From Amphiscolops sp. MND2022 (lineage: Eukaryota): a DNA stretch of 64,000 nt. The DNA is taken from assembly GCA_964187785.1 (NCBI GenBank), contig OZ076409.1, forward strand, positions 31,436,001-31,500,000, in the 5' to 3' direction. How positions within the stretch are numbered: position 1 is the stretch's first letter; the number at the start of each line of letters is the position of its first letter. Positions 1,761 to 47,684 of the stretch are shown piece after piece. The position numbers were made by a program, and so were the translations under genes. A model generated the notes under the pieces. The model worked only from the letters and a program-made list of their open reading frames with translations, ran no database searches and was not told where the DNA came from.

Positions 1761-2425
1761 GTACTTCAAATTTCGCCCAAATTTTCAAAGATACAGTCAA
1801 AATGGGTAAATTCTGCCCAAATTCGTGCCAATGAAACCATTTGGTCCTTTTGCCGCTGTTTCAGTGTTCCAGCATTCTCCGTTGAAAAATGACTAGACTT
1901 CAGATATTCAAAAAAAAACTTTTTCAACTCCAATTTTTTTCCAACTTCAAGACTCCCACCAAAGTTAAGAAACTTTCACACAACTAGGATTAGAAGTGGA
2001 TGCATGTGGAAAGTACTCGAATAGACGAGAAAAATGCGCTATAGTAGGTCTCTGTATCCTAACCTGACGTTGACTTATGATGTTTTGAATATGAGCTGGA
2101 TAAGGGGTTAAAATGCCAAAATTGAAAATGGAAATGTAAGTCTCATCCAAAACTCATCGTAAGACGTTAAATTAACCCCAAAGCTGTTCAATTGACGTTG
2201 TTTAGCGCACCAAAACTATGCAAAGTTTTTTTCACCCATTTTGAAAAGTATTGAAAGCTGTATTGATTATCAGTCAACAAGAAATACCCAAGTACATTCT
2301 CATCACCACCCTCGGGGGAGATGAGAATGTACTCTTCAAAAGCCAAAAGATACTACTTTCTCAAACTCCCCGACACGCAGGAAAACATGAAATTGTTTCC
2401 AGTACCTCCATGATGTACCTTCTGA

Positions 2426-2903
2426 TACGATTCGAACGAAAATTTCTACAGTCATTCTACGCCATATTAGAGTCCTATATGTGCTATGGCATCAAAATCG
2501 TATGGCTGGGATGTCAAAAACACAGCCAAAATTAGCCCAAAAATGGTCAAAAAAGGGCCATTTTTCAATTTTTTTTCGATTTTCGCAAAAACTTTATACG
2601 ATTCGAACGAAATTTTCTACAGTCCTCTTACACTATATCATGGTCCTTTGTGTGTAATTTCATCAAATTCGTATTGATGGGATGTGAGAAATCTAGCCAA
2701 AATTAACCCAAAAATGGCCCAAAAACAGCCATTTTTCGACTTTTTTGATTTTGGAGAAAACTGTCCATACGATTCGAACGAGATTTTCTACACCATAGTA
2801 TCGTCTACGTGTGCAATTTCAATAAATTCGTATAACTGGGATTGGAGCCAGTCAGAAGGAAAAAGACCTAAGCCAACTCCTTTACCGCATATGCGGCTCT
2901 GGT
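2426..2903 (+). repeat. R1 repeat, 3' part
   Basis: Ends ..ACTCCTTTACCGCATATGCGGCTCTGGTT (hairpin CCGCATATGCGG). Confidence 0.75.
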
Positions 2904-9519: not shown

Positions 9520-10301
9520 CTTATTATTTCTGCGATAGCAGGAATATTATTTAAATCTCAAGATGTCTACTTTTTTTCAGTGGAATTCTTCGCACGATTA
9601 CTGAATAATTCAGTTATTTTTTTTCGGCAGTGACTGTAAGCGTGAAAATTAAGTTTCTCAAGCTGTCGACGACGTTTGAGTTCTCGTGCGATGGAACAAG
9701 CGAGTGGTACTTATGCATTCGTACGATGACGTCATTGAGATGAAGCGAGCGATTGTTCGTAATTATGCTTCAGTTCTTCGTTCGTTGAGAGCTTCGCCTG
9801 CATTCAAATGCGATTGCGAAACTTCGTCTAAGCTCAGTAGTTTTCTTTAGTCCGAGAATAATTGAAGGCGGTGTAAACTTGGATTACGTACCAAATAACA
9901 TACGAGCAAATAACATAAACAAAATAAGTTTCAAATAACATAAAATTGAAATTAGTTCCAAATAACATAAAAATAATACCGAATACCTGGTTAAACAATC
10001 GATCTCAAAATTTTCTTTGTAGTTTTCCTACTTTTTCCAGTGAATCTTTTGAAAATTTTGACCAGTAAAATTTTCTCGTAAACAAGTTTATTTTTAGTGA
10101 AATTTTTCAATTTTTAGTTTAGTGAAACTTTTCATTTTTTTGTTATTTGAAACTAATTTTGTTTTTGTTATTTGGGAATTCACCGTAAACTTGTACAGTG
10201 CTTAATTGTGCACTGAATAATGATTAAACAGGAGTGTATTGGTATTCCAGATATGAGTCTATTATTGATGAAAAATTAAAGCAGAAATAGTAGTGTGCCC
10301 C
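9520..10301 (+). repeat. Dispersed repeat family R3 (other copies ~3275-3660, ~33045-33930, ~35160-35640), with a nested MITE-like insert at ~9885-10186
   Basis: TATTTCTGC(T/G)(T/A)TAGC..TAAAGCAGAAATAGTAGT inverted ends; shared core GCTTCGCCTGCATTCAAATGCGA..TGATTAAACAGGAG. Confidence 0.7.
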
Positions 10302-10376
10302 AGTAGTTTGATTTCATATGGGACCGTGCTAAACACGGGGGGGGGGGGGTGGGGTTGAAATTTTACAAAACTTTTG

Positions 10377-10465
10377 CCAAGTCCCGGATTCGAACCCATG
10401 CGTTCGGCTTGACCGGGGACGGTTTTCGATGGAAATGAGAGGATTAATCCACTATGCCACCAGGC
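10377..10465 (-). ncRNA. tRNA-like Pol III unit within the Polinton A terminus
   Basis: A box TGGCATAGTGG, B box GGTTCGAATCC, downstream TTTT. Not a canonical cloverleaf. Confidence 0.55.
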
Positions 10466-11264
10466 ATCTGTAACTGTCTATTTTCAATCCTTTATATTAT
10501 TCGAATATTAGTTAACTTTCGTCACTGGTATCTGATTCAACTCGATAAACAATCGGTCAAAATTCAGTTTCTATTCCGTGTCACATTTTTAGCCTAACTA
10601 TTATAAATACTATGAAAAATTTGGAAGAATTCGAAAGCTTTGGCTCGTGATTTTAATCATTTAATTTCCAGGTTACAAATCAATTGGAAGAATTCCAAAG
10701 CTATCGCTGGTGATTTTAATCATTTATTGTCCAGGTTACAAACCAAAAGAAATTGCTCACAAATTGATGTGCATTGTTGACTGACTGCAACAATGGCAAA
10801 TAGAAATACATTCTTTTGTCTTAAACAGTAAATATTCGGCTCAAAATTGTAAAATATTCAGGTTCCTTTTGTTTGATTTCACTGAGCTTCAAGTCTCGTC
10901 CCTATTGAAAAACATCATGCGCATTTCTCTGGTTCTTCCCGCTGACTTTCAAGTATTGTTGAGTGAATAATGAAAAATATCTAGCTTTGTCTGGAGCTGC
11001 AAATGATCTAAATAGATCTGAACAATAAGTCATTTTTGCAACCTTCTGTTCTGCTTCAACTGAGCTGTTCTTGCCAGCCGCTATCACTATATAGAAATAC
11101 CTCCTGGAAAATTTGCTAGACTGGGTTCTTTTTCAGTTTGAATTTGCAATATTCTTCATTCACGTCCATGTGGATAACATTAATTTGCAAATGTTGTTTG
11201 TTTGTCATGAGCTGTATAGTTTCAATTTTCCCAGTTTCAATGTAACCAAAAAAATCAATACTGG

Positions 11265-11557
11265 TTTTTGCACATGACGAAGTCAATGTGCATTGCAGTC
11301 CAGCTAAGAAAGTTTTTTTTCCACATTAGCCAACTTCATAAGAAGCGCCTTTTAGAGAAAAGCCAAAACCCCAGAGAGATTCGAACCTGCAGCCTCCCGA
11401 TTGCGCGGCATAAGTGTTAACCACTGTGCCATAAGGACGTTATTGAATAAAGTTGAACTGTTCAATATATACGCATGCGATTAAAATAATATATATACGC
11501 ATATTAAAATAATCGTTGTCTTCGTCATGTGTTGCGAAGCACCGCTTCGCCTCTGTG
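11265..11557 (-). repeat. tRNA-derived (SINE-like) dispersed repeat; second copy at ~33093-33393
   Basis: A box TGGCACAGTGG and B box GGTTCGAATC at ~11370-11438; closely similar sequence at 33093-33393. Confidence 0.7.
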
Positions 11558-12014
11558 TTCATTTTGGGTTGCATCTAATTTTAATAGAAACTCAACAAAA
11601 AGCGAACTTCTCATATAACCCACTGCCTCGAAAAGGGTTTTTCAATTCGATCAAAATTAACTCATGACGAACAACCAGCAATTTCTAGAGAGTTTTTCTC
11701 AACCAACAAATCTCAAGCTTCACGATCAGTTTTTGTTTGGAGTCTTCACTGATGTTAGTCATTCTCTTGTTGAATATTCAATTTATCCTGTGAAGTTTTT
11801 TCCGCCTTTGCCACACTGGAAATTTCATTTTTTGTGCATACTTCAAGGACGTTTTCAGCGGTACGACGATGATCTCAATGGAATCCAAAGTTGGTCAGCC
11901 TGTTTTTATTCAAAATTACAGTCTTAACGAAACTGTAACAGACCGAAACATAGCTTGAAACTAGTCCAATTTTAGCGAAAAATTTCTTCAAAATGCCCCA
12001 AAATAAAGTACATA

Positions 12015-12656
12015 ATGTCTAAAAACCATACCGGAATTTTCAATCAGTCTTCTTCACAAGGTTTGATTCTTCTACCGCAATTATCATTCAAAGCTGTACG
12101 ACATTTCATAATGCCTCCAAAAATTAATTGCGCTGTATACAGCTACATCAAAAGATCAATATGGGATCTGTCTGAAGACGATGATAAAGCTATGATGACG
12201 GTGCCTCCTAGTAAAATTCGCGCTACTACGACAGATAATGGTTTGAAAGTTGAACTTTTGAAATGTACTCCTTTGGAAAATATGAAAGAAAAAGATGGCA
12301 AACTTGAACAGAGGTTCAGGTACTTGGCTTGCGTTGCAGTTGGCGACAGTAATGGTTCTATAGGAATTGGTGAGAAAATTGCCTCTTCCAGAAAACTAGC
12401 AGAGTCGAGAGCAAAAGAGGAAGCAATGAAAAACTTTTGCCACATCAGAAAAGAGCTTTTTGGATCCGTGGAGGGAAAATGCGGCAAAGTTTCCATTACA
12501 ATCAACCCATCGGCTGCAGGTTCTGGTTGTACCGGATCTATTTTAGCTTTGAAACTTCTCGAACTCCTTGGAATGACCGATTGTGATGTTGTAGGATCAA
12601 ATAACAGTTTGTCTTTTATCAGAGCTTTCAATAAAGCATTGAGAAAAATAAAATGA
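12015..12656 (+). CDS. Divergent intronless ribosomal protein uS5 (40S S2)-like protein; start may be ATG 12111
   Basis: LKVELLK..RFRYLACVAVGDSNGSIGIG, VEGKCGKVSITINPSAAGSG and KLLELLGMTDC align in order with RPS2 [45 protein letters not shown] and KLLMMAGIDDC. AATAAA overlaps the last codons. Confidence 0.85.
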   Translation: MSKNHTGIFNQSSSQGLILLPQLSFKAVRHFIMPPKINCAVYSYIKRSIWDLSEDDDKAMMTVPPSKIRATTTDNGLKVELLKCTPLENMKEKDGKLEQRFRYLACVAVGDSNGSIGIGEKIASSRKLAESRAKEEAMKNFCHIRKELFGSVEGKCGKVSITINPSAAGSGCTGSILALKLLELLGMTDCDVVGSNNSLSFIRAFNKALRKIK

Positions 12657-13004
12657 ATTCGATTTAATATTACCTAAATTTTTTTATTGTAAGGTATAGT
12701 TATAGTGTGAGAACGGTTTGGGTAAGACTGTGGATGTGTGAAAGGTCATCCTTGCGGTGTTTCCGATTCCACGGTTTTTACCCGCTATAGGTTTAGAAAA
12801 TTCTAAGGCTTTTGGAAGGCGGTGAGAGAGAGAAGAACAGAAGAAAGAACACTGCATACAGGTAAGTACATTTCAGTTCATTTCATTTTACTGCTGCATG
12901 CAAGCATATATGCGCGTATGCGATCATAATTTAAGCTGAATGTTTTGCTGTTTTATGCGTTCTTCATTGTTTCCTGGCGGCATATGAGCTCAATATCTGG
13001 AGTT

Positions 13005-13890
13005 TTTACCCCAGATTTTTCCATTCTACGGTTATGGAGCTGCATAAAGGCCTGCGGGGGCGGCAATAAAGCCTAGTATTTCGCTTTTATAGCCAAGCAT
13101 TTTCCATTCTACGGTTATGGGGCCGCACTAAGGCCTCCTGGGGCGGCATTAAAGCCCAGTATTTCTCTTTTATAGCCTAGCTTTTTCCATTCTACGCTTA
13201 TGCGGCCGCAATAAGGCCTCCTGGGGCGGCATTAAAGCCCAGTATTTCGCTTTTATAGCCAAGTATTTTCCATTCTACGCTTATGGGGCCGCAATAAGGC
13301 CTGCGGGGCCGGCATTAAAGCCCAGTATTTCGCTTTTATAGCCACTTTTTTTTCCATTTTACGGCTATAGGGCCGCATTAAGGCCTGCGGGGGCGGCAAT
13401 AAAGCCTAGCATTTTGCGTATTTACCCAAGTTTTTTCCATTCTACGGCTGCGGGGCCGCGATAAGGCCTGCGGGGGCGGCAATAAAGCCTAGTATTTTGC
13501 TTTTCTAGCCACGTTTTTTCCATTTTACGGCTATAGGGCCGCATTAAGGCCTGCGGGGGCGGCAATAAAACCTAGTATTTTGCTTTTTTACCCAGGCTTT
13601 TTCCATTCTACGGCTGCGGGGCCGCGATTAGGCCTGCGTGGGCGGCAATAAAACCTAGTATTTTGCTTTTTTACCCAAGTTTTTCCATTCTACGGCTGTG
13701 GGGCCGCGATTAGGCCTGCGTGGGCGGCAATAAAGCCTTGTATTTTGCTTTTTTACCCAATTTTTTTCCATTCTACGGCAGCGGGGCCGCGATTAGACTT
13801 GCTGGGGCGGCAATAAAGCCTAGTATTTTGTTTTTTGAATCATTTATGGACTTTTTTTTCAACTGAAAGCTTTTATTCTACGGCTTTTGG
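13005..13890 (+). repeat. Tandem array A, 83-bp GC-rich unit, ~10 copies
   Basis: CCATT(C/T)TACG recurs at 13021, 13104, 13187, 13270, 13354, 13437, 13520, 13603, 13685 and 13768. Confidence 0.95.
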
Positions 13891-14041
13891 AGAATCTCCT
13901 ATGCTATTAGACAACGCGTCAGCGAATAAAATGAGAGCAAAACAACACTGAATTCACAGTTACTGAAGCACTTGTAACCACTTATAGTTTACTCAACAGG
14001 TCCCTGAGAACAATACAAAAACAATAACTTTAGCACAAAGA

Positions 14042-17000
14042 CTAGCTAGTAGCATATGAAGTAACATGAAGTCCTATTCGCTGTCGCTCACAATCTCCAT
14101 CCGTCTCCTTTTCGCTTTTTATCCGGTTCACAAATTCATCGTCGCTGAACCAATTGTCAAAATCGATTAGGTATTTCAAGTCTTCGATGGCGTTTGCCTC
14201 ATCTTCCGTTAGTGTCTCAACAATCACGCAGTCATTTGGGTCCGATTCATCCTCTTCTTCTCCTTCGAGCTGGCCATCTGCATCGGAAACTTCTAACGCC
14301 TCGTCGTCGATGATTGGGTTTCTGGGAGGGCTCTGCTGTTCTCGAGTTTCGTCCAAGTTTGTTTCGCCTTCCAGCTCGGAATCACTGTACCCTCTTTGAT
14401 GCATCCCCGGATCAGGTGGTCAACATGCTTCCATCAATTCTTGAGTGAGTGAGATTGACTCATCTTCAGGTAGTCGCAATGGTGACGGAAGACGGGCATT
14501 TCCCGGCATCGGTGCCTCATCTGGAAAGACTTGGGAGATTGTGTTTTGGGGATCGATACCGTTTAGTTCATCCCAAGTGGGACTTGTTGGCATTTCTTCG
14601 TCTTCATATCCCCATTCTGGTTCATCCAAAATGTCTTGCTCAACATGAACATCCCTGATCATGTAGTGACCATGGGGTAAGGTTGAGATGCCGTCTTCTA
14701 ATACATAGCGTTTATCATCAAAGGAGCTCAGCGACAGCTTGTTGGTCTTGATAGTTTGCAATTGATGTCGGGTTGATCCGATCCGCGTGTTTAAAGTCTT
14801 GAAAGAATCACCCGTCTGCAGAATTGTTTTGAAAAGCTCATGTGTTAGCTTTCGTTGAACGAATCTGGTGACGCCCTTCGCTGATAACTTTTGCTTCCCG
14901 CCTGCCAAGATGGAATACATTTTTGGCTTGAGGCCTACAAATTCTTCGATGGGTGCTCCTCCTAGCTCATCTTTGAACTTGAGTGTTACCATTTTGTTGT
15001 CGGCGTTATTGAGTTTATGATCTGTGGGGTAATTTGACAAGTCAAAATATTGACGCAACTCTGCGTTTATGGCAAGCTCTCCATAGAAATCTGTGTGTTT
15101 CACTTCGTATAGCAGTGAGTCTGTGTCCGAGTACAACACAAAGCAATTGAGATGTTTCTTCATCACATTGTATTGGAAATCAAACATGATGTATTTTGCC
15201 AAGTCTAGTACAGCAGCCCCAACTATTGTGGGTTTGTTCCACGTGATGGATCTTTTTCTTGAAGATATAGCTGCTAGATTCTCGTGGAAAATCTTGAATT
15301 CATGAAAAAAGGGTGTCTGTCCTCCTCAGTTAGAGCTTCGCTGTTGGCGATAAGGTGTACACTCACGAGGTTCCGTTTACTTTCCTGAGTTTTACCGTAG
15401 CAAGAATTGTTCATGAGTTTGAAAAAACTCTCTTCGAACTTGTTTCGAGATTCTTTTCTCTTTGCGATATTTAGCTCCATATATGGTTTCAACCATTTTG
15501 TTTGTTTGAACTTCAACACTCGATGTACTTTCATCACTTCCATGCCAAGGCTAACGTAGAGCTTCAGTGTTATATAATGGACAGTATAGTTCTTTTTGTC
15601 AGACAGTGATTGAATCAACTTGTTATCTTGACTAAAAGGTCTAGTTTCACCCATCTTTTCCAACAACTCTTGTTGACTTTCTCCCAGACTTTTGTAGTAT
15701 ATTCTCTCTTTTGTTGGAGCCAGTGGAAAATCTTCATGTCCATCATGAAGCTTATCGGGGTAATGAAGGTCCACTTCTAGAATGTATCCTTCTTCAGAGT
15801 CGTTAGATGTTTCCAATATTTTGCTCAGGGTAATGTTTTGAACTGTTTCAAAGCTGTTCAATGGCAGTGGTAGTTTTTCCATGACACCGCCATACAAGTT
15901 GTTTGCGTCGAGTAATACACCATATGTGTCATCTTCTCCGTTGTTGTGGTCATCTAGGTATCTGTTGTTTGCCTTGAAAAGTCTCTTGTCAAACACTGAA
16001 GATACACCTCCTCTAATCATATTTTTAACCATTTCCAGGTGGGAGCGATCAGTTAAAAGTTCAATGTCTGCCCGACATATTTTCAAGAAAGCATCGCCAG
16101 ATAAGTGGGAGCAAGTAAAGTAGTGTGCACTGTCCAAGCCATAGGTCTTATAACATAGGCTACAAAATTCTTCAACCACGCATGCCAAGAGTAGAGTGTC
16201 AGTTAAAAGGTACAAATTGTGGTAATCACCCAAGTTTTCGCATTGGAACTGCTCGTAAACCTTTTCTGCGTGTTGCCATTGATCCTCAGTAACCATAATT
16301 TCTCCATTACGCAGCCAATCTTTCCATTGTTCTCTCGGTGGTAGCTTTTCTTGAAACTTTTCAAAGTTGTCAAAGTAGGAGTATGGATAATAGCCCTTTT
16401 GATGTAAGAGGTTTCGTTCTTCTTTAGAATAATCATGAAATACTTTGTCAAGTATTTCAAACTTATCTTCCGGCAAGTATGAAACTACTTTTTCTAGCGA
16501 AGCACCCATGAATCGGTATGATTGTATAAATCGCAGATACTCGAATACTGTCTTTGTCACCCCATTTTTATCTTGGTATGTTCTAACAGGCACTCCGATT
16601 GACAATGTTATGTATTTTTCATCTGTTGACGGTATTACATCAAGTTTCCAACCTGGTTTGAACTTGTGGATATACATACAAACATGATGCAAGTCATAGT
16701 TTGACGAGTTGTGAGCTATGACTGGAATGCAGTTTGTGGTTTTCCTGTTGATATTACATTCTGGGTGTGCGAAACCGAGAAACTTCCCGAGTAGTGACAA
16801 TGGTCGATAACTTTGTCGTCTTCTATGTCTCTGTTCAACCCAAACTGACCTTCGCAGATCCAACAAAATTGTGCTTCTTGAGGTCTTTCTGGTAGTGCAT
16901 CAGAAAAGTAACGATGGTTTTGCTTTCTTGTATTCATTTCCTGAGCAATTTTCTCAAGTGCTTCAATGAATTTCTCCATGCAGTTTTCAGAACGTTCAAG

Positions 17001-18447
17001 CTGCATGAAAATTGGTGTAGGGTTACCATGTTCAATACCAACAAAGCAGAAGCCGCTTGGTTGGTGTAGTTCAGTGATGCTTGTTGATTCGTTTTCTTTT
17101 TGGCAGCCGACTAGTGGTTGAAGGATTGATTCGAGATCAAAGTAGATAACCACTGGGGCAACCCATTTCGCACCCAAGTGTTTGATTTTCAACCGGTTTT
17201 TTTTCTGGCTGAGGCATTTTCACAACAGCGGGCTCGGTGATGCAAACAACTAATTTGGTGACGTTTGTAAACGTTTTCATCAGTGCAGATGTGAAAACAA
17301 TTTCGGCAGAGTACTCTCTGAAACAACGATGTTGTTCCTTTGATCAAGTTGACGAGTCTCGAAAGGTCCAGTATCAAAACGTAGTGATAATCCTGTCCAT
17401 CGTCCACTAACAATAACTCAACATTGAAAGTGCTGTCTTCACGGGAAACTCAGTGGAACTAGTTCGTTTTCAGTATAACGGAAAACGTTAACGTTGCACT
17501 TGTTCAATTTCTCAAATCGTAACATTTGTCCAAAACCCATGGGCATTTCATAGTCACCCACTGCTTGATGAGCTAATTGATTTCGTGGGGAATACGTTTC
17601 AGGGCTCGTTCGTCTCCCAATTGAATCCCGGCTAGCCACATAGAGTAGAGGTCCATGTTTCAGGTGCCACACAGCTGTAAAGCAGTACAAAAAGCAATTG
17701 TGATCTTGTCGGTTGCGAATGTTGAGCGGTTAATGCGGTGCCTCCAGTTCTGGTGGAGTAGGAAGGTAGGAGGATCCCCGAATTGGATTGAAGGTGGCAA
17801 ATTTAATGTCTAGCTCAAATTTTTTATCCAGTATCCACCCACTTCCGGAAGCAGTGAAGTGTTGATCATTTTGTCCACTGCTGCCAGGAAATCGTTTTGC
17901 GGCGGGGTATTGCCGTAAACAGGTACCATGTGTGATCGAAGAAAAAGTTCAGTTTCTTCTCCATTTGTCGGCTTTGAAAGCTCTGTTCTCAAAACGAGTT
18001 GCATTTTCTGACTTGTGCGGTTCACATTTTCGCTAACCAGTTGATTAATTTGTCGTTTGACATCAGTCATGAACTGCAGCAAGTCGTTTTCTCCTGATCC
18101 AATAAATTTGAATACTTTGAGAGCCCCATTGAAAGCGGATGAGATTGGTTTCGTTTTCTCCTTGATAGAATCGATAGGTGGTGGTAGTCCATGTTTCTCT
18201 AACAAGTATTTGAAGAATTTTTGGGCGTCATCGAATCCTACTCCACAATAGACGCAAATTTTTTCCAGCTGGGTTCCGTGTTTTGCGCGGAATTGTTGAT
18301 CAGATAGAGCAACGGATAGTTCCATCTTGTGACAAACTTCGCATTCCATGGGAAAGAGATTAGCAGGGATTTTGTGAACATTCCGTCGATGTTGACGAAG
18401 ATTGTTTTTGTTGGGAAATGTTTTCTGACACCTGTCGCGATTCTCAT
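14042..18447 (-). pseudogene. Protein-primed DNA polymerase B (pPolB), frameshifted; N-terminal zinc fingers, acidic C-terminal tail
   Basis: YFDLES, DHCHYSG, AHNSSNYD, KGYYPY, DANNLYG, FKLMNNSCYGK, YSDTDS and DDKRY motifs spread over successive frames. Confidence 0.93.
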
Positions 18448-19735
18448 TTTGACTAAAATATTTGATTGAAACTACTATATCAGATGAATTTGTTGCCGAA
18501 ACAAAACCTCGCTATAATAAAAGTAAATTTTTTCTCAAAAAGTCTAGTCAAGTTCACTCTGAAATAGTATTTTCAATCAAATATTGCAGGTGAGATTTGG
18601 TGATTTTCAACAAGATTTGTCTGTAAGGGTAACTGATTTTCAACAAAGTTATAGATTTTTGATTTGTTTTGAAAATTTCATTTTAAAAGTTGAGCTATCT
18701 GGGGGTTATTCGGGTTCGACGACAGACGCAAGCTGACGCACCCCTAATCAGCGGTTAATCTCGTTCAACCGGCAAGACAAATACAAGCTGACGCACCCCT
18801 CTCAGACAATCGGCGGTTGATTTCGTTTGATCCGGCAAGATACCTAAGCGCACTTGTTGAAACACATCCCCTCTAGACACGCTACGCAGTAAAAGTTCCC
18901 CTTAGAAGTGGGCTGTCGTTTAATTTTTCTCAGCACTCGATCGTAAAATTGCAAGCTGTTGCTCGCCGCCGCCGGACTTGTCTGGCCGCAGGCCAAAATC
19001 ATTTGCTTCTTGCCTGATTTTAATGTCAACTGCTGTTCAATTTCGTCTCCTCAACTTCTTTGCTGTTTGCCATTTCACATCAACTGTTCAATTTCGTCTT
19101 CAATTTTTCGCTGTTTGTTCACTCGAGATTATTTTATATCAAAACGCTCTTTGACCTGACCATGATCCCGATTAGATCCTGCCTCCGCATGGACGATGAG
19201 CTCGTCTCGAACTATGGACCTCCGCTAAGAAAGTCAGTCACTTTCAACATCTAGTTGAAATATTTGGAGATGTCGTCACTCTGGAACCGTCCCCCGCAAC
19301 CTCGAAAAGCTGTTCAATCACCTCAAATGGGCGAAATGCAATGTCTTTGCAGCTACCAGTAACCCAACCGCAACGGAAACGACCCGTCAAGCCGCAGCAA
19401 AAGGATATCCGCGTCAGTTTCTCCCCCTTCTACTTAACGATCGAGCCAGATGGCCGGACGTACACATCCGTCACATCTAGAGGAGGAGGATGACTGTTGG
19501 AAACCTGGAGCTATGGATGGCGAGCCTTCATTTAAAATGAACCATCAGAACTTGATTTGTTTTTGATTTTGTTTCTGTTGTTTCATCACTATTTTGACTC
19601 TGTATTTTATTTGATTAGTTGATTTTGTGTTTGTCTTTTAATCTACCTTTTTATCGTTCCCAACTCAATTTAGTCTTGCTTATTTTCTTTTCAAAAAAGT
19701 GGTAAAGAAAAAACATGAATTAGACAAAAACAGCC

Positions 19736-20164
19736 TTAAATGAAGTGTTTTACAAATCGCATTAGTTCTTGTTCACTAATATGAGGAATTATAGGAAAAT
19801 GAGCGCCAAATACATAATGGGCTATATAAATGCAATAAAGTCCACACAAGTTTGAGTTTAAGTTTTGCAGAGGAGCTTGTATAATCTCTGTCACTCCTAA
19901 ATCTGCAAAAGATAGTCGATCACGTACATGAGGATAATTGTTGAGTGCAAGTCCAAGTGGGTCGGCGAAGAAAAACTTGTTGTTTCTGTTGCAAAGCAAA
20001 AGCCAGTGTGTTCCCATTTGCGTAGCTTTGTCTGAATTGACAATGATAAAGTTGTCATTCTTTAAACTGAGAGGGAAATTATCTGCTGCATAGACACCTG
20101 CGAATTTGTACTTCAAGTGTTTACACTTGTTGATGAGAATGCCCAACTGTAGTTCGTCAATCAT
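19736..20164 (-). CDS. Adenain-like cysteine protease (Polinton PRO)
   Basis: FAGVYAAD, IVNSD..GTHW, FADPLG and Q..SNLCGLYC catalytic motifs; ORF intact. Confidence 0.9.
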   Translation of the reverse strand: MIDELQLGILINKCKHLKYKFAGVYAADNFPLSLKNDNFIIVNSDKATQMGTHWLLLCNRNNKFFFADPLGLALNNYPHVRDRLSFADLGVTEIIQAPLQNLNSNLCGLYCIYIAHYVFGAHFPIIPHISEQELMRFVKHFI

Positions 20165-21487
20165 TTTCTTGTTATTGCGGTATCGGGAGCAATGTAGTAG
20201 TTCTTTGAGACTTTTCTGCTGTTATTAATGTATATTGTTGAAGCGGTTTCTCCCAATAAAAGCACTTCTGTAATTTGTGCTAGGGCGGTATCGAAACGCA
20301 AACTGATTGAGATTGATGCACTTGTAAGTTCAGGATGTAAATAATCATGCGATGCTTGATGAGTACTGGTTAGATCGAAAACTAACAGATAACGATTTGC
20401 ATCTTCCTCGAATGAAATTCCATGACCATGCTCGTGAAACGCTAGAGCTCCCATTGAATTCAAATACATCTTTTTGTCGGTGTCCGTCTCTAAGGGTGTT
20501 CCAGCAATTGGATGACTACTACAGTAGACTGTTATGCTGCGCAAACCAATTTTTTGATAGTGGAATGGGTTCGTTGTTTTGGCGCCCACAAAGCCAGCAT
20601 TGGTTGACATGGCAAGTATAAATCGTCGAATTGGTTGACCGCTAAAGACATTTTCTTGATCTCAACTCTGTGAGTTTTGCCCGATAAGAAAAGTCCTGAG
20701 AATGACCTCAGTGTAACGATATCGAGCAGTAGCTTTCGCCAAAGTTGTTTCGATTGCTGAATAGGCATTCTCAGTAAGCGTTATTTTGCGAACGTACAAA
20801 TTAGCTTGAGTTATATTAACTTTATAGTCTTTGCCTGCGTCGTCATAAATCAAGCAAAATTCGGGCCTCGTTCGAAGGAAGGATATTCTCAGCTCAACTC
20901 CTGACAAGATGTTTTTCGCACGAGAAAAAATCAGAGGTAACTCGCCCAATGAAAGTTACAGTGGCTGAAGATCTAGTTTCAGCTTCTCTCTTTGTGAAAG
21001 CTCCCAAGGTGTGCGTACTAGGGTTGGATTCGTAGTTATAACCCTGACATTCCAACCAAGTGTTTTTTACTTCCTTGTTGTGGGAAAATTCAGTTTTAAT
21101 AAAGGCCTTGTGGGCATAAAGTCCATTTGCAGAAGAGACTTTCACTCCTTGAGCCGTTACCGTGCAATCCGAGAATAATGAATGGAGAGTATTGTTGACA
21201 AAAACTGGCGTGTCTTGTTGAGTTGCGTCTCCAGTAACAAAATTTAAATTGGTGTTGTCGGTTTTTCCAATTTTACACTTGACTTCCAAATAAATGTTTT
21301 GTAAATCGATGAAGTTGGTCCGGTCTCCCTTGACTTCAAACTCCAACGTTGGTCCATTTGGAGCATACAGCGGGCCAATTTTCTGCTCCAAAGACCTGTC
21401 AAAGTTGACTAGAAGCTGAGGCCTTTCGAAAATATCGAGTGAAGTGTGCGAGGTTTCGATTGGTAAAGCGTTACTGTTAATCAACAT
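20161..21487 (-). pseudogene. Major capsid protein (double jelly-roll, PY), frameshifted
   Basis: SLDIF, FIDLQNIYLEVK, VNNTLHSLFS, ANLYVRKI, NPFHYQ and LVFDLT motifs in three frames; typical position next to the protease. Confidence 0.85.
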
Positions 21488-21848
21488 TTTTGACTCTAGA
21501 GAAAAAATCTGACCGACTTCTTCGTGTGAATTTTTTACGTCGAATGAATCGTTTGCCTCTTCTCCTTCTTTTAGATCCACCCAATTGTTTCTTTACAGTT
21601 TTGCGGACCGCTGATCGAACCGCTTGTTTTGGTGTCTTCTTTTTTGATGCCACGTCAAGCAACTCGGGCATGCTTTGTGATAAGAATTCTTTACCAATTG
21701 ACTTGACAGCGGGAAGCAAAAACTTTTTGGCAAATGGTAAAGCTACTCGTCCAACACCAGCTGCTAATGACCCGAAACCACTTCCACGTTGTCTTGCAGG
21801 CCCTGAGAAATGGGGTAGTTGTGCCTGTTGGGCGTAGTATTGTTCCAT
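21477..21848 (-). CDS. Basic core-like Polinton protein
   Basis: YYAQQA..FSG..RQRGSGFGSL motif typical of Maverick small basic proteins; R/K-rich C-terminus. Confidence 0.7.
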   Translation of the reverse strand: MEQYYAQQAQLPHFSGPARQRGSGFGSLAAGVGRVALPFAKKFLLPAVKSIGKEFLSQSMPELLDVASKKKTPKQAVRSAVRKTVKKQLGGSKRRRRGKRFIRRKKFTRRSRSDFFSRVKNVD

Positions 21849-22655
21849 TTATTGAAATTTCCGAAATTTGAGTGTGAGAGCTACTAGACCGGTACCAACG
21901 AAAGGAACTTTCTGTCCAGTAATGGACATCAACTCAACTTGAATTTCTTCAATTGTACTAGTAATGAGCTTCTTGAACTGTAGCTCAGTGAAAACTTTAT
22001 TGGCTGTTGTTGAAGTGTCTAAAAGTTTCCCGTCTTGAACTTGTTTAGTGTTTTCGATATTTCGCAAAAGAGGCGACTTTACTCCAGCAACATGTTGATG
22101 TTCATTGATGTTGGTGTTGACGAAAAACATGTTGATTCCCACTGTGAGATCTGGCGGAAAGTGTTTTTGATTGGTTGTTGCATATTTGCGACTTTGTAGT
22201 TCGTTCCTATGTAATAGCCTCCTCGATTTGTATCTGGCAACCCCTGGATACCCAAAACATCAAAGAGGCTTCGATCCCTGACACTTATTCACTGAGTTTA
22301 ATGGCTTTTTGGTTTCAGTTGCCTTGTCTAGTTGCTCCAGAATGCTGCTGATTGTCTGATACTCTCCAGCTTCAAATTTAGCATTATCTGACTAATCCTC
22401 TCGTTTGATAACTGCACCGCCTTCACTACTCGGGTCAGGAGTGTTGTCATGTGGCGTTTTGGGTGTGTAAATGAAAAAGTCAGTTGTAGTTCTCTTTTTG
22501 ATGCTGGTGGAGAAAATGATTTCGGCAAGCGCTACCCGCCAGTCGCCTTCCAAGTGAATTGGGTGCGCCAAGAGGTTACGAAACGCTGCCATTTTTTTGC
22601 CACTGTATATATTCATGGAACCTGCTGATTCCAGGTAAATGTCAAATTCGTCCAT
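21849..22655 (-). pseudogene. Minor capsid (penton-like, PX), frameshifted
   Basis: N-terminal F.IYLES..SM..Y..FRN.L..PI.LEGDWRVALAEI and C-terminal Q.VAG.KSPLLR..I.VEL..G..VPF..LTLKFR. Confidence 0.75.
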
Positions 22656-23582
22656 TGACCTTCACAAGTTCGGGTTCGTAAAATTTTCCGTTGATTGTAT
22701 CACCACTCTCGTCTCTCAAGTTGTATGTTGGAGGGTTGAAAGTGGAAATTTTGACTATTGTAAATATTTCGTCCGTGAAACTTGTTTATATCCCTTTTTG
22801 AAGGGTAAATCTTGTTTGGCTATCCGAACTTTATCACGGAGATTAAACTTTGAACTTTGGCTTTTTGACAAATTTGCTCGACTGCTCTGCAGCTAGAGAT
22901 CGTAAATGTGGCTCGTGCTTCTTTGTAACTTTGTTTGGGGCCAACTTTGTTACACGATTGACGCGTGAGTTGATTGTGCTGTCAAATTGAGATAGCTTGC
23001 TGATGTAATGATATGTCCATTTGTTTTCCATGTGTTTGTACATGATATTTTTGAGTGAACGAATGTTTCTCTCTGCAAAAGCTGACTGTTTCGCTGGCAG
23101 TTGTGTATATTGCTATTCCTCTCTTATCGCAAGGATTTTTGAATGCTCCTTTGAATTCGGGTCCCTTGCAACTTTCTGCGGTTGCACTTTCTCAATCATC
23201 TTTTCGAATGCTTTAGCAGCGTCAGGAGCACTTTTTGATCGCATTGGTACAACACGTAAAAATCTTGATAACACGTCTACTGCAACCAGCAAATACTTGA
23301 CTCCATTGTTGTATTTTGCCAACTCGTCCACATAGGCAACATCTATTGACCAAATTTCGTTAATTTCGTAAGCAATAACTTTAGGGCGAGGGAATTTACG
23401 TTGAATTTGTCTGTATTTTGCATGGGCATCTTTTTGTTGCCAAAAAGTGTCAATTTTTGCTTTGGCATTTTGCTGGTCGCTTGCAAATTTCTCGCGCTCT
23501 CGTAAACAGCATGTCCACTCGTGTACATTTTTTCCAATTTTGCTTGTTCAGTAGTTGAAAGTTTCCCAATCCTTCGAGCCAT
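22642..23582 (-). pseudogene. Retroviral-like (rve) integrase, frameshifted
   Basis: KYLLVAVDVLSRF..PMRSKS, AERNIRSLK, INSRVNRVTKLAP and KPKF..GDKVRI motifs. Confidence 0.88.
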
Positions 23583-24202
23583 CTTCTTGACTTTCAAAAC
23601 TTCGGCCAGATTGCTGGTCATCTTTCTTGCGGGGTCTCTTTGGTGTCTTTCCGCTGCTTTTTGTTTTTGGTGTTGTGACAAACTTGATCTTGACAACTTT
23701 TGGTTTCACAATCTCTTTAGCTTCCGAGTTTGGTACTAGATCTGGTGAAATTTTAATTTTGTCCAAAATCCGTTTGTAATCTGGGTGATAGTTTCTTGGT
23801 GGGTTGCTGCAACGTGAAAAGGAAGTTTGACGCATCAATGGCTGTGGGAGTATTGTTAATCTCTATAAGACCTTCGTCGTTTATCGGAACGTCAGAACTA
23901 CTTTGCAATTCTTTCAAAATGGACTTGGACTTTTCAGTTTGATTGGGATTGAGCATAGTGATTGAGCGAAATACCCTTTTCTGGATATCTTCTCGTGTCT
24001 CTGGGTCTTTCACTTCTTGAGACGTTTTTTCCTGCTCGGGCTCCTTTTTTTCGGGAACTCGTTGTAATAACGTAAGTTGTTGACTTTTTTCTGTAATTGT
24101 TGGATCGTCCAGAATTTCGGACGCTTTTGGTTGATTCTTGATGTAATTTTCTTTTGGTATTAGTATAAATTCTTGAGCACTCATTCTGCTGATAAATAGC
24201 AA
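23548..24202 (-). pseudogene. Polinton hypothetical protein (two overlapping ORF pieces)
   Basis: ORFs 23753-24202 and 23548-23838 lie in gene-dense Polinton context and probably form one frameshifted gene. Confidence 0.5.
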
Positions 24203-24461: not shown

Positions 24462-25133
24462 TCAGTATATGCTATTTTCTCGCTCTTTTGTTAGAAGCGT
24501 TTCCTTTGCAGTGGATGATGGAATATAAAAGGTAGTCGGTTTAGGAGCAACAATATTTGAGCAAAAACGTAAGACGTCACTTGTTTTGGGATCGAAATCA
24601 ATAAGTAAATGTCCGAATGGTCTTGTTGTGGCCCTCTGATAAGCTTCTCGAATGAAATCTAATTGTTTTCATTGTCTACCGAAATGATCAATTTGCTGTA
24701 AGTCTCGTGGTGATTTGAATAAAATGACATGTGTTGTGTTCAAATCAATTGTACGCGACCACTTGCTTTGATGGAATAAGTTGTGTTTGACGAAAATGCA
24801 ATGGAGTTTCCTGTGTCTACCGGCAACTGCAAGTTTGACAAACGCTTGCTCTTGGTAAATCTCCTCACAAGAATCGTCGAAAACTAACAAACAGTTTTCC
24901 AAGTTTTTGATCATTTCAAAGTCCAAATATGGAATGAACTCAATGTTTAATCTTTCAGACATTTCTTGGAAAAGCGGTTGATTTTCCTTGTAAAAATAAA
25001 ACGTTTTTTCGATGGGTGGATAAAATGTTGTAGGTGAAGCAAGCATCGAATAAATGAGACGAGTTTTACCCGAGCCCCCAGGACCAACCAGAGCCATGAA
25101 TAAACGATCATTGGTGAGAATGATTTTGTTCAT
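24462..25133 (-). pseudogene. A32/FtsK-like packaging ATPase, premature stop at 24669
   Basis: Walker A GPGGSGKT, Walker B LLVFDD, AGRH and FKSPRD; homology continues past the TGA (..PFGHLLIDFDP). Confidence 0.9.
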
Positions 25134-25444
25134 AGTTTAGGATTTGGTAGAATGTAACCAACTGCTCCAAATAATAGTGGAAACCACACTGACATTTCTT
25201 CGCATGGCGGTCTGTCTAGAGTAAGTTTCAACAAACTAGCAATTACAAGAATGAATATTAGTGTTGCTTGAGTAAAAAAGACAATCTCTGATCTTGGTGA
25301 AGTGATTGATTTGCAAAACTTCCACAATGACCTTACGCTGTTTTCTTCGTTGGATTCCATACTGCCTATGCCATCATCTTCAGCGATAACTACCTCAGTC
25401 ATATTTAAAAATGTTTTTGATTGTGAAAAATGAATTGATAACAA
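25130..25444 (-). CDS. Small two-TM Polinton protein
   Basis: Two hydrophobic segments ending VGYILPNPKL; stop overlaps the ATPase start. Confidence 0.6.
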   Translation of the reverse strand: MLSIHFSQSKTFLNMTEVVIAEDDGIGSMESNEENSVRSLWKFCKSITSPRSEIVFFTQATLIFILVIASLLKLTLDRPPCEEMSVWFPLLFGAVGYILPNPKL

Positions 25445-27395: not shown

Positions 27396-27418
27396 AGGGT
27401 TAGGGTTAGGGTTAGGGT
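27396..27418 (+). repeat. Short interstitial (TTAGGG)3 tract
   Basis: AGGGTTAGGGTTAGGGTTAGGGT. Confidence 0.8.
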
Positions 27419-27846
27419 CGAAAAAAACTTGGTGGCATTGTGAGCGAATTGTAGAGAATGTCGGGAAAGATAAAGACGAACTGACACCCTGGTCGAGAAA
27501 GGGCTCCAAACAACAAGGAGTCGAGTGTAGGTTTTGAAAAGTTTTGTTTAGAAGAGGAGGAGGAAGAGTATTCATGACGACCGCTACTTTCGGCGAGAAT
27601 TTGGATATGTTTATAATCAGATGAATTCTTTAATTATCATCTCTCTACAAAGATTTGAAGCACCAATAACAATCGCGTGTTTTTCCATTAAACCTGAAAA
27701 CAGATGTGTTATTTCAGAGTCAGAGCAGAATAGTTTCGTTGACGAAACAAAAAGTGTGAGCACAGATAAAAACAAAAAAAACATGCAAACAATGAATTTA
27801 GAAATTATATTTAGTACAATACACTTGATATGCGTTTTTTGTCAAG

Positions 27847-30001: not shown

Positions 30002-30435
30002 GTAAATATATCTGCGTAAGCTGGAGTAACATTAGAACGCTAGAAGCAATTTTTTCCACCGATCTTACGATCTTGACGAAATATTCAACGTCTCAAATTT
30101 ATTTGCTCCCTGTCTCCCGTAGCATGTAGCGCGGACACTTTTACTGACATGAAGCAAACGAATGTTAACTAATTAATAATTCGCGAGAGCTTCGCCTGCA
30201 TTCAAATAAGGTCATTAGCGCTTACTATAAAACTCATAGTCCAAGATTTTGGAAATCTGTTTGGAATGTGAAAGATTTCTGCGTATTTTTGTATTTTATC
30301 TCAAAAACTGTGGAAATGAAGCATATACTTTTAGTTTAGAATTATTCAGTTGTCGAAATGTTAGTGAGCCGACCTTTCATGCATTGGTTTTCAAGATTCA
30401 GGGATTTTGTATATTGTATTTTGAATGGTCTTCAG

Positions 30436-30640
30436 TGGAGAAAACTGAATGGGCGATGCACGAAAGCCAGCTGAATAGCAGAGCAGTTCATATCGTGGAT
30501 GCGCAAACCGCTGTGTTTGTATGGGAAGGTCGCAAAAGTCAGCGTATTTTGAGACGAGCAGCCTTGCAGCTAGCCAACATGTTACTAACTATGATAATAC
30601 GACAGGACGATGAAGCTGGGGTCCTCATAGAAAAGCAGGG
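30436..30640 (+). CDS. FLII: Flightless-I exon, gelsolin repeat 3
   Basis: LNSRAVHIVDAQTAVFVWEGRKSQRILRRAALQLA matches FLII [33 protein letters not shown]/GT boundaries. Confidence 0.9.
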
Positions 30641-30816
30641 GTTCGTTGCTTTTAGTTCATCTAGTTTTCGCTCACGCTCAACACATAGTTTGGGCTTTTT
30701 TAAACTGAAAGTTGGTTCGGTGCTTTTCGAATTGAAAATGGGAGATTTGTTGGTCGCATATAGCAGTTTATTATAACGAGTTATAACGGTTTTTCTTTTT
30801 ACGTATTTTGCTTTAG

Positions 30817-30907
30817 TTTCGAAGACGAGTTCTTCAAAAGTTTCTTCTCATCCTGGGAATCAGAGAAAGTGGCGATTGATTTCACCAAAGATGCTTTTCA
30901 TGGACAG
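30817..30907 (+). CDS. FLII: Flightless-I exon
   Basis: (G)FEDEFFKSFFSSWE..IDFTK resembles FLII GTEAQVFKAKFKNWD..VDYTR; TAG/GT boundaries, in phase. Confidence 0.85.
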
Positions 30908-30995
30908 GTTGCATCCCATACAAAAGTTAGAGCCCAATATATATATTTTTTAAATATTATTTTTTCTGAAAGTTATGTGAACATTGTTTCTTTAG

Positions 30996-31112
30996 GAAGA
31001 CCGCAAGGAAACGAAAGCGAACTTGGGTGCGTTGTTTGCACCCAGGGCACCGGAGCAGAATTTGGAGGACTTGGAGTATGAGCGACTCTACTACTTTGAT
31101 GATCTTAAGCAA
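30996..31112 (+). CDS. FLII: Flightless-I exon
   Basis: KANLGALFAPRAP resembles FLII KADLTALFLPRQP; TAG acceptor, GTAAGT donor. Confidence 0.85.
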
Positions 31113-33929
31113 GTAAGTGGGGCTCATTTCAGTGCGTAGATTGGAAAGTAAATGAGCACTTTCATTTAAAGATTGATCAGGAGAAAAAACAATCGGAAGA
31201 TCTTGAAGCATTTCTGTTTCCCTTCATAGATTACCCATTAAATTTTATAGTCAAAATGGATGTAATAGAATATTCGCAGGGGTTTTCCCAATTTTTGGCC
31301 AAGTGAATATAGTTTTCATTTTTTTAGGCTGACTGGATTTTCACGATCAAATAAGACATTTTTCGGAATGAGTTTCAGTTATCCTCCATTTTCTTGTCTT
31401 TTTTGATGCTCAAAAAATCCCCATGAGCTGGAATATTTATTTAATATTTCTGCGTTAGCTGGAATTTTGAAAATATTTTTGCTTAAGCTCGAATTTTTTT
31501 CGCGTGAGCTGGAATGTAATTAAACGAGAGGTTCAATTTTATTACGACAAATCGTTTTTTCTCCATAGTTTCCACCTTTTATCATCTTTATCATCTTTTA
31601 TTAACGTATCTAGCTCTTCAGCAACTAGCCGAGAAGAATTTTGTTGGCAATGAGCTATCGCGTGTTAACCTAATTAATTAATACCTCGCTAAAAAAATTT
31701 TTATTAAAGAAACAAATGCAAAAGTTCATTGATGTTACTTTTATCAAGTGTTTTTCTTTATTCAAGGAACAAAACTTGTAGTCCCAGATTTGTTTATTTT
31801 CAGTGTCACATTCGGTGTGCATTTTTGCCAAATTCATAATTTTTGATTGTTTTGAGAAATCTACCTCGAATTCCAAACTTTTAAAAATCTTTTCTGTTTT
31901 CAACAAAAGTTTTGTTTTGATTTATAACTTTTCATCAAGGTTTTTCCGAGTTATTCATTTTCCGAGTTAATTTTATTTATTGGAATTATTTGGATGCCGA
32001 TTTTTGCGTTTTGCTTTTAGTGTTTGGAAATAGTTCAAATAGTACCATAGATGCGCAGATGTCTAATTATGACGATTTACACAAGTCTTCTGAATATTTA
32101 TAACTTAATTTTTTTGGTCTCAATCGAAGGCTTCTGATTTTTAGATTGGTTTCTTCCGATCAGTATTTTGCAGTTTTGCTTTATTTTTGAGTAATGTTAG
32201 TCGGAAAATAGCAGAGACGAATCATTTTTTCTGTAATGTCCCTGTACGTTTTTTCCCATAACTACTCGATTTGAAACTAAAATAAGTTGTTTATTTTCGT
32301 CGAATTTGAAGATCGTTCTTCTCAGCTTTACTTCTCGCAATTACTTTCGAGTGAAGCGTCATCGAAAGCCCATGATACATGGATTGAATCAAGTGAATCA
32401 GTATTGAGCACTCGTTCATGTTTAAGTAGTTTCTCCCGAGCAATTTATTTTGTTCAAAAATGAGCGGGACAAAACAGCCGGTTGATTATGCACGCATCAG
32501 CATCAATAAAGCGCATTAATCAGAGAATATTAGCACAAAGATAATTTAGTTGGACTTCGGTATAATACACCTTCGTTATAACATAATTAAATTATAAATC
32601 TAGTTCTTGATGTTTTCAGCTAGAGATCGTTTTTCGCTGTCGCCCATCAAAGAAAAATATGTATCCCGAATTTGAGCACAGTTAAACGCCTCTTTATCTG
32701 TGATTTGAATCGGACCATCGTCTGACTCTGATTATTCGTCGCTAGTCATCGCAATTTTCATCCAGATTTTCTTTTAACTCAAAAACTTCTGGTTTCAAAT
32801 TCATCGGGCGTTAGAATTTCATCATCGGGAAAAACCTCAGGATCAAGATAAAGGTTGCTGAATTCTTCAATAGACTCATCGAGCTTTTGAAGAAAATTGC
32901 CCGACTCTTACAGTTGGTAGTTTTTTAGACACGGAAGGTCCTTTTTTTAGGAGTCGGAAAAAATTTCGACTAATTATGCAATCGTGTCTCTCCCAACCAT
33001 TTCATGAAAATTTAAAATTTCTCAAAAACTGTTCATTCGATTTTTATTATTTCTGCTTTAGCAGGAATATTATTGCAATCTCAAAATGTCTACTTTTTGC
33101 ACATGACGAAGTCAATGTGCATTGCAGTCCAGCTAAGTAAGTTTTTTTTCCACAATAGTCAACTTCATAATGAGCGCCTTTTACAAAAGAGCCAAAACCC
33201 CAGAGAGATTCGAACCTGCAGCCTCCCGATTGCACGGCATAAGTGTTGACCACTGTGCCATAGGGACGTTATTGAACAAAGTTGAACTGTTGAATAAATA
33301 CGCATGCGATTGAATATATACGATTTTTCGGCATTCGTCTAGCCATGATTCGTCTTCGTCATGTGTTGCGAAGCACCGCTTCGCCTCTGTGTTCCAATAC
33401 AATTCTTGGCACGATACTGAATAATTCAGATATTTTGTTCGGCAGTGACTATAAGCGTAAGAATTAAATTTCTCAAGCTGCCGACTACAATTCAATTCTC
33501 GTGCGATGGAACGAGCCAGTGGTAATTATGCATTCTTAAGCTGACGTCATTGAGATGAAGCGAGCGAATGTTCGTAATTGTGCTTTCGTTGCGCCGAGTT
33601 ATTGAGATGAAGCGAATGAGTGTTAATTATACTTTCGCGGAGAGCTTCGCCTGCATTCAAATATATATTTGCTTTAGTCCGAGATTTACTACTATTACTA
33701 CTAAAAGACTGAATTGATTGTAGTCAGAAATTGATTCTAGAAAGAAATACTTGATGATATTTACATGTACAGATTTTTTCAATAACAGATTTAAAGGTGG
33801 TATAAACTGGTACAGTGCTTAATTGTGCACTAAATAATGATTAAACAGGAGTGTATTGGTATTCCAGATATGATTCTATTATTGATGAAAGATTAAAGCA
33901 GAAATAGTAGTGTGCCACGGAATCGCCTA

Positions 33930-34398
33930 TTTTCATAAAATTTTGCAGTCATTTTACACCCAAAGGGGCCCCTGCCTGCGCAAAGGCGTCAAAATCGTAT
34001 GACTGGAATGTGAGAAACAGCCAAAATTAGCCCAATAATGGCCAAAAAACAGCCATTTTCGACTTTTTTCAATTTTTCAAAAACTGTCCATACGATTCGA
34101 ACGAATTTTTGTACAGTCCTACACCATATTATGCTCCTTTGTGTGTAATTTCATCAAATTCGTATTGCTGGGATGAGAAACATAGCCAAAATTAACCCAA
34201 AAATGACCAAAAAACAGCCATTTTTTATTTTCGCAAAAACTGTCCATATGATTCGAACGAAATTTTCTACAGTCATTTTCTACACCATAGTATGGTCCTA
34301 TATGTGCTTTTTCAATAAATTTGTATGACTGGGATTGGAGCGAGTCAGAAGGAAAAAGACCTAGGCCGACTCCTTTACCGCATATGCGGCTCTGGTTG
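33930..34398 (+). repeat. R1 repeat, 5'-truncated copy
   Basis: Same internal subrepeats and the CCGACTCCTTTACCGCATATGCGGCTCTGGTT end. Confidence 0.75.
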
Positions 34399-47625: not shown

Positions 47626-47684
47626 GCAAAATTTCAAACCCCCCCCCCCGTGTTTAGCATGGTCCCATATAAAATCAAACTACT

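Follow-up and report, generated by a model that had tools for sequence, protein, structure and literature searches.

Polintons in the genome of Amphiscolops sp. carry divergent, polymorphic genes for ribosomal protein uS5

The window analysed here, a stretch of 64,000 nucleotides from contig OZ076409.1 of Amphiscolops sp. MND2022, contains an open reading frame for a divergent ribosomal protein uS5 within the remains of a Polinton. The features concerned are as follows, in positions of the window:

10302..10347, + strand: Polinton terminus (5'-AGTAGT...G-run) at the uS5-side end, which also bounds sister elements flanked by target-site duplications (TSDs)
10380..10462, - strand: tRNA-like unit immediately inside the terminus and pointing outward, in which a motif scan finds A and B boxes of RNA polymerase III; not called as a tRNA
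11270..11557, no strand assigned: 289-bp tRNA-derived repeat, missing from the closest copies (L002, L003)
12015..12110, + strand: in-frame upstream extension from the first ATG
12111..12656, + strand: element-borne uS5 gene of lineage I, 181 aa (Pfam, PDB matches, model, dN/dS)
12690..12890, + strand: non-coding segment 3' of uS5, 85-98% identical among lineage I, above the ORF itself
13003..13836, no strand assigned: 83-bp tandem array of type A, 10 copies, between uS5 and the polymerase gene
14045..18511, - strand: protein-primed DNA polymerase B (pPolB; PF03175), at least 7 broken frames, convergent with uS5
19739..20221, - strand: adenovirus-like protease (PF00770, E 2.5e-4, 0.1 bit under the cut-off)
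20164..22661, - strand: probable major capsid, basic core and minor capsid genes, broken, with homologues in a second family
22846..23705, - strand: retroviral-type integrase, broken (PF00665)
24672..25136, - strand: packaging ATPase (A32-like), truncated (PF04665)
47639..47684, - strand: terminus of a separate insertion of the same family

PF03175, PF00665 and PF04665 score above their cut-offs in the window element; the broken ORFs at 20164..22661 gave no Pfam match, and their capsid and core names are presumed from position. Sister copies of pPolB have open frames of about 1470 aa. Because the core genes are in pieces and the similarity to the far ends of sister elements stops at 25570, the window element is dead and truncated, with its second end missing. 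About 13 breaks were counted over about 7.5 kb of core genes, a density at which chance would leave an ORF of 0.55 kb unbroken in about 4 cases of 10; the intactness of this copy therefore proves little, and the evidence for selection is that of the family. The first-pass annotation had placed the ORF between the terminus at 10302 and the 83-bp array, both of which are present. Its supporting argument from a second end of the same family is weak, as the terminus at 47684 is not the partner of 10302 (the flanks differ, tgcccc vs caggtg), is followed by a different 83/84-bp array and has no uS5, and no second uS5 was found in the 64-kb window. The 289-bp repeat we infer to be a later insertion.

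Several other observations concern the surroundings of the gene. The 3' segment at 12690-12890 contains a strong splice-donor-like CAGGTAAGT near 12860, and no Rfam match was found in 10200-14100. tRNA-like units with polymerase III A- and B-boxes, in several sequence variants, lie inside most Polinton ends and point outward (in the window at 10380-10462 and 47546-47617), and they could be insulators or small RNA genes. ARAGORN calls the unit at 47546 tRNA-Glu; at the element ends of 52 loci it called no tRNA, its sole call lying outside the element in L040. Elsewhere in the window, 48000-62000 holds tandemly repeated fragments of another Polinton family without uS5, including a double jelly-roll match at 58740-59231. 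Exon-like frames with a weak gelsolin-repeat match at 30240-38412 (+), between two Polinton insertions, are probably a host gene, and a short TTAGGG telomere-like run at 27397-27420 lies near where the element similarity has ended.

The open frame at 12015-12656 (+) encodes 213 aa with uS5 motifs in the expected order, and both Ribosomal_S5 (PF00333, 37.2 bits vs a cut-off of 27.1) and Ribosomal_S5_C (PF03719, 34.1 bits vs 21.5) are recognized by Pfam. PDB sequences matching it at E<=0.1 number 162, and the best 60 of the 162 are all uS5. In the AlphaFold2 model of the 181-aa form from 12111, both domains are confident, with pLDDT mostly about 90 across residues 71-180 and disorder before residue 40, and the model aligns to uS5 chains over 135 residues (Z 18.7, rmsd 1.5). 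The window ORF is thus a two-domain uS5, as had been proposed from its motifs. The absence of the RGG tail, the WxPxTKLGRLV segment and the RRGYWG..PHTVP loop, also pointed out earlier, agrees with the alignment, in which the C-terminal extension is missing as well; identity to exon 1 of the host RPS2 is about 32%. Comparison with predicted viral proteins gave no structural match at E<=0.001, and the protein atlas returned uS5 clusters only, all scoring under 0.9. Both Pfam domains are likewise above cut-off in lineages II, III, VII and VIII and in the IVb gene of L134, and some other element alleles have only one of the two above cut-off. The ATG at 12111 is the start common to relatives, and the 32 codons upstream of it are open in the window copy and L002 only; the first ATG at 12015 is probably not the real start.

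The element proteins retain the two-domain fold of RPS2, with E-x-LK, R-x-x-A-x-V-A-V-G-D, conserved Gly/Ala positions and, in some lineages, W-x-P-x-T; they differ from it in lacking the RGG tail, RRGYWG and the C-terminal extension, in their lower charge and in far faster evolution. In host numbering, the Leu-Lys before the hairpin, Gly113, Ala125, Ala129 and Gly193 are kept in 31 of 31 element rows, and Arg98 in 80%. The hairpin-preceding Lys (host 83) is found in 90% of eukaryotic rows and in no archaeal row. Lost or changed are the KQTRAG hairpin-loop sequence (the loop alignment is uncertain), Glu121, RRGYWG, Ser165 and Thr199, surfaces that are conserved in all cellular uS5. The RGG-rich N-terminal extension is absent from all aligned element rows and is replaced by neutral, Ser-rich or acidic segments; a remnant HT motif of the PHTVP loop persists in lineages II, VII and VIII. 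Core charge, with rough boundaries, is about +3 to +16 in elements, +5 in the window protein and +17 in the host protein.

As to gene structure, the window ORF is intronless, as first described, but this does not extend to the family, since many sister genes have an upstream splice acceptor and an intron interrupts the coding region of one lineage. Of 25 genes (one of them with a mis-set start), 15 have a TTYYAG acceptor no more than 50 nt from the ATG, against a background of 10%; both host RPS2 copies have it and the window copy does not. In lineage IV, five of the six loci examined carry an in-phase intron after an acidic exon. No host-like N-terminal exon was found upstream of the genes of lineages I-IV.

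The assembly of the same species (G000, 1.07 Gb) was searched with the window uS5 and further queries. The window query gave 150 scored matches of 318 candidates, compared with 7 candidates for uS2 and 2 for uS3 as controls, and over all queries at least 250 distinct places with element-type uS5 were tallied, many of the copies having stops or frameshifts. Among 20 divergent uS5 places that were fetched with 5-kb flanks, one was host RPS2, and 16 of the other 19 have a convergent pPolB within 5 kb, the remaining three lying in expanded arrays. In the reverse test, starting from the 149 best pPolB places of 2367 candidates (a sample biased to the window's family and to well-kept copies), a listed uS5 was found within 7 kb at 131 places and was convergent in all 131. 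All of the remaining 18 places were read: five have uS5 or its remnants, two have uS5 about 16 kb away beyond a long array, and 11 have none, so that a uS5 gene or remnant lies within 7 kb at 136 of these 149 best-scoring places. Two pairs of pPolB places have one uS5 per pair.

The layout is fixed, running from the terminus through uS5 and the tandem array to the convergent pPolB, and apart from uS5 no gene was seen on the other strand from the core genes. Both ends were read in 15 sister elements, 14 of which, spanning 15.6-21 kb, have terminal inverted repeats (TIRs) and a perfect 6-bp TSD (11 of 12 elements of the first set and 3 of 3 of the second family, in which protease, capsid and integrase share 53-70% identity with their window counterparts). 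The TSDs flank whole elements and not the uS5 ORF, the flanks of which are shared element sequence. The proposal of the first-pass annotation that uS5 is Polinton cargo is thereby confirmed: the gene is multi-copy and occupies the same slot in most Polintons examined, in units bounded by TIRs and TSDs. Within the Polinton family uS5 is nearly fixed and, at the same time, hyper-polymorphic, neither of which the first-pass annotation had anticipated.

Some copies depart from the common pattern. uS5 is amplified in tandem together with expanded arrays at L031, L045, L066, L106/L089/L092/L099, G000:C12:37.27 Mb and C3:58.05 Mb, with no pPolB near the copies of L031 and L045. Places of identical score (e.g. 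C10:810299, C3:11050244, C4:51237066) represent at least a dozen near-identical uS5 copies on many contigs, a subfamily whose sequence similarity indicates recent spread. At the other side of the elements, three conserved small ORFs (199, 142 and 116 aa) lie between the ATPase and the far terminus and are nearly invariant; they have no Pfam match (L109, L110, L112-L121), and the 199-aa ORF has what we take to be a DEDD-like start.

Several elements without uS5, most of them with one and the same terminus type, have other ORFs in the uS5 slot:

L150:4259-5227 and 1835-2545 (-); L148; L074:4374-5096; L144, L146, L151, L156: alternative slot cargo, JmjC-like or OTU-like

The JmjC-like ORF has atlas scores of 0.92-0.96 and no Pfam match; other slot ORFs, also without a Pfam match, show what is presumably an OTU-like catalytic motif. 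The presence of a JmjC-like ORF where uS5 is absent fits a slot for host modulation.

The host's own uS5 genes lie elsewhere. Canonical RPS2 occurs twice in the genome (L052, L054) with the RGG tail, WVPLTKLGRLV and RRGYWG, an intron and second exon being present at L052, and the dN/dS of the two copies is 0.01. A divergent multi-exon RPS2 paralogue (L164/L170, G000:C1:84.638-84.642 Mb) has exons 45-72% identical to protein P0072 from another source and is possibly the donor or a relative of the element genes, and MRPS5 is a separate multi-exon gene (L165). No Polinton genes or ends were found in the fetched flanks of RPS2, the paralogue or MRPS5. The host also has an intronless uS2 copy, in addition to a second, multi-exon locus for that protein, and an intronless uS3 gene (L161, L163).

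Selection on the element genes was assessed by Nei-Gojobori dN/dS with bootstrap intervals for 32 element pairs, which are not independent. The ratio was finite in 19 pairs and below 1 in all 19 (0.09-0.61), with 17 of them at 0.09-0.33 and a bootstrap interval below 1 in 15. Synonymous sites were saturated in 12 of the 32 pairs (pS 0.76-0.87, pN 0.16-0.30), and one pair had no synonymous difference. For the window copy and L004, dN/dS is 0.32 (0.18-0.56). Element uS5 is under purifying selection, with dN/dS mostly 0.1-0.3. The earlier argument that the gene is no decaying retrocopy and has long been selected in the element therefore holds through the family's dN/dS, its original basis in the intact window ORF being weak. 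A processed RPS2 retrocopy was likewise rejected on the element-derived flanks, the dN/dS below 1 and the identity of about 32% to host exon 1.

The uS5 lineages are shuffled between termini, upstream regions, arrays and pPolB alleles. Among 22 elements, chosen partly for divergent uS5, 57 of 66 pairs whose pPolB 3' ends are at least 90% identical have uS5 under 50% identical; L072 and L076, conversely, have uS5 98% identical and pPolB 74% identical. All 11 far ends that extend into the tested ATPase-side sequence match the window there at 94-98% identity. A screen of 37 loci (666 pairs) shows that junctions often fall at the 5' edge of the ORF: unrelated upstream DNA precedes ORFs that are 89-99% identical in the window vs L004/L005, L009 vs L010 and L039 vs L040, and L009 and L016 are 96% identical upstream and 66% in the ORF. 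Conservation across lineage I continues for 200 nt beyond the stop, so the difference between L009 and L016 does not require an exchange on both sides. A strict co-evolution between uS5 lineages and array types was rejected, because lineages II, IVb and V occur with both types; the two are linked, though not strictly. Polymorphism and shuffling extend to the pPolB alleles, termini and arrays, and thus the diversity of uS5 could reflect old divergence and recombination without balancing selection.

With regard to origin, trees were built with IQ-TREE (LG+C20) from subsets of 76, 47 and 45 rows, without near-duplicates, fragments and most canonical hits. In these three trees the element proteins form one clade (support 93; 94/90; 95/92) joined to eukaryotic RPS2 (95; 99/94; 100/98), with at least eight lineages (I-VIII, labels of this analysis) that are mostly 28-45% identical to each other. 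Grouping with archaea, and with it an archaeal origin, was rejected by the AU test (p 0.019); grouping with host RPS2 (p 0.43), the paralogue's orthologue P0072 (0.32) or bacteria (0.27) was not rejected. All of these tests are limited by long branches, which may also have created the element clade. Sequence features settle the type of uS5 better than the tree. Lineages V and VI keep the archaeo-eukaryotic segment W-x-P-x-T..GRL..EPEI and lineage VIII a variant of it, which argues against a mitochondrial or bacterial uS5, and the lineage VIII model, which has a host row in its alignment, can be superposed on uS5 of archaea and eukaryotes across 188 residues (Z 24-25, rmsd about 1.4).

Taking together the convergent pPolB, the TIRs and TSDs, dN/dS, the trees, the mismatched identities and the uS2/uS3 control, a Polinton ancestor very probably captured a cytosolic eukaryote-type uS5 (RPS2), probably once, and this gene is now present in two families as at least eight selected and shuffled lineages in a fixed slot. 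The donor may have been host RPS2, the host paralogue or another eukaryote. When 1.84 billion representatives were searched with a profile, a few clade members from outside the assembly emerged. No scored own copy exceeds 45% identity to P0021 or, apart from one partial stretch at 62%, to P0033, and other genomes thus probably have the family too; P0045 is matched at 82% in this genome. Scans of viral contigs and metagenomes gave no locus with uS5 in a Polinton context outside this genome.

The elements resemble vertebrate Mavericks (PMC8097293) and adintoviruses (PMC8502044) in their pPolB, integrase, ATPase, putative protease, AGTAGT ends and 6-bp TSD; a size of 13-25 kb and accessory regions by the ends are also shared. 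The core genes described there are intronless with omega near 0.001, whereas uS5 here has splice signals and omega of about 0.1-0.3. Nematode Mavericks (10.1101/2022.07.12.499685) have a comparable low-conservation slot of 2-5 kb beside the TIR with intron-bearing, host-derived, recombining cargo, namely wasp proteases and krma kinases. In the present elements, unlike those, the cargo is a ribosomal protein carried by about nine in ten of the elements examined, and its place is at the 3' end of pPolB, past a tandem array. Mosaicism of this kind recalls the reassortment of replication and morphogenesis modules outlined for Polisuviricotina (10.64898/2026.10.13.758929); here, by contrast, reassortment occurs within the population of one genome and down to a single accessory ORF.

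Virus-encoded ribosomal proteins offer the other comparison, as captured genes under purifying selection in a viral genome. Cases include phage bS21 and bL12 and the eS30 of murine sarcoma virus (PMC6375957), as well as eL40 of giant viruses (PMC11499249). These proteins are small, mostly exchangeable and close to host sequence; element uS5, however, is a universal two-domain protein of the mRNA entry channel, about 30% identical to the host's and present in many allelic lineages. The string 'ribosom' is absent from the main text of PMC8097293, PMC8502044, 10.1101/2022.07.12.499685 and 10.64898/2026.10.13.758929, and 'uS5' and 'Polinton' are absent from PMC11499249 and the review PMC13712778. 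No published report of a Polinton-borne ribosomal protein was found among literature listings and the main texts just named; S5 hits that drew no comment could exist in the gene tables of Maverick surveys or in repeat databases. Known ribosomal proteins of eukaryotic viruses amount to very few cases (eS30, eL40), and among those found none is in Polintons or is uS5. Element uS5 combines two known kinds of gene, Maverick cargo and virus-borne ribosomal protein, and is unusual in being a core 40S protein that is near-fixed in its family and hyper-polymorphic.

For the function of the gene, the explanation that we favour, on a judgement that is evenly poised, is that uS5 is a ribosome-directed modulator or decoy with spliced, host-like expression, as the acceptor signals suggest. 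The gene would be transcribed and spliced like a host gene, and its product would act on host translation as a mimic instead of a normal ribosomal subunit, binding the 40S, the pre-40S or 18S rRNA transiently or soaking up factors that handle or police uS5. Element mRNAs might thereby be favoured or ribosome surveillance blunted, and alleles so unlike each other would coexist as the outcome of frequency-dependent conflict, whether elements contend with the host or with one another. Such a mimic has plausible targets, since uS5 is bound by PDCD2/Zfrp8, which also affects fly transposon RNAs (PMC4726551), is ubiquitylated at K54/K58 by RNF10 with loss of the 40S (PMC10878831), and is contacted by coronavirus Nsp1 (PMC10093926). 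The loss or change of surfaces conserved in cellular uS5 and the low charge count against a ribosome-directed role, however, and a divergence of about 70% among alleles is hard to square with a fixed docking site on an invariant host ribosome.

Other readings lead away from the ribosome. The N-domain of uS5 is dsRBD-like, and the captured, selected gene could have been repurposed as an RNA-binding silencing suppressor or as a chaperone of element transcripts, e.g. of convergent uS5/array/pPolB RNAs, which is the main alternative, though a rather unlikely one. It would agree with the retention of the fold core and basic hairpin while ribosome-specific loops and tails vary freely, and with the convergence of uS5 and pPolB across the array at all 131 listed places; but no lineage has lost either domain, the C-domain included, the 40S-specific N-terminal helices persist in V, VI and VIII, the link between lineage and array is not strict (II, IVb and V having both types), and the predicted folding of the 83-bp array RNA is not better than that of shuffled sequences (z 0.69). 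Many deeply diverged, exchangeable alleles in a fixed slot on near-identical backbones would also suit a gene for specificity between elements, either a dominant-negative uS5 toxin or a factor of self/non-self exclusion, and nematode Maverick cargo is reported to have given rise to a toxin (10.1101/2022.07.12.499685). We consider this improbable, given that no partner gene lies beside uS5 in the fetched loci and that one genome holds many alleles.

A true replacement subunit, in which the element protein is built into the 40S to give specialised ribosomes, seems a shade more improbable again. The predicted structure of lineage VIII would be compatible with it, matching uS5 over the 188 residues mentioned, and phage bS21 and bL12 do enter ribosomes; yet the source that describes the latter also indicates that known viral ribosomal proteins tend to be exchangeable ones (PMC6375957), and in the window protein many universal residues are missing along with the N-terminal segment and the RGG tail. 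Yeast Rps2 uses its tail to bind Tsr4 and the importin Pse1 (PMC13627120), so that the loss of the tail in the elements argues against normal assembly. That the genes are neutral passengers or decaying RPS2 retrocopies is very hard to believe, even though the window element is dead, chance could well have left its frame open and many copies have stops or frameshifts: low dN/dS in the finite pairs and saturated synonymous sites with open frames, the single slot and orientation, the lack of amplification of uS2 and uS3, and TSDs that bound elements instead of ORFs all speak otherwise.

Returning to the ribosome-directed modulator or decoy, its fullest form, which we put forward only tentatively and think likelier wrong than right, is that an endogenous DNA virus lineage of animal type keeps a near-obligate uS5 as a balanced allelic series, whose members dock at or near the mRNA entry channel of the 40S, or decoy its surveillance factors, in an arms race. 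The hundreds of copies, many of them intact and recently inserted, constitute a natural allelic series of a normally near-invariant protein, and through it the effects of Polinton accessory genes on the host, and the use of a ribosomal protein as a viral effector or decoy, become testable. Shuffling at the level of genes is shown within the Polinton population of one genome. If the arms-race reading is true, integrated Polintons would hold a ribosome-reprogramming effector engaged in such a contest with their host.
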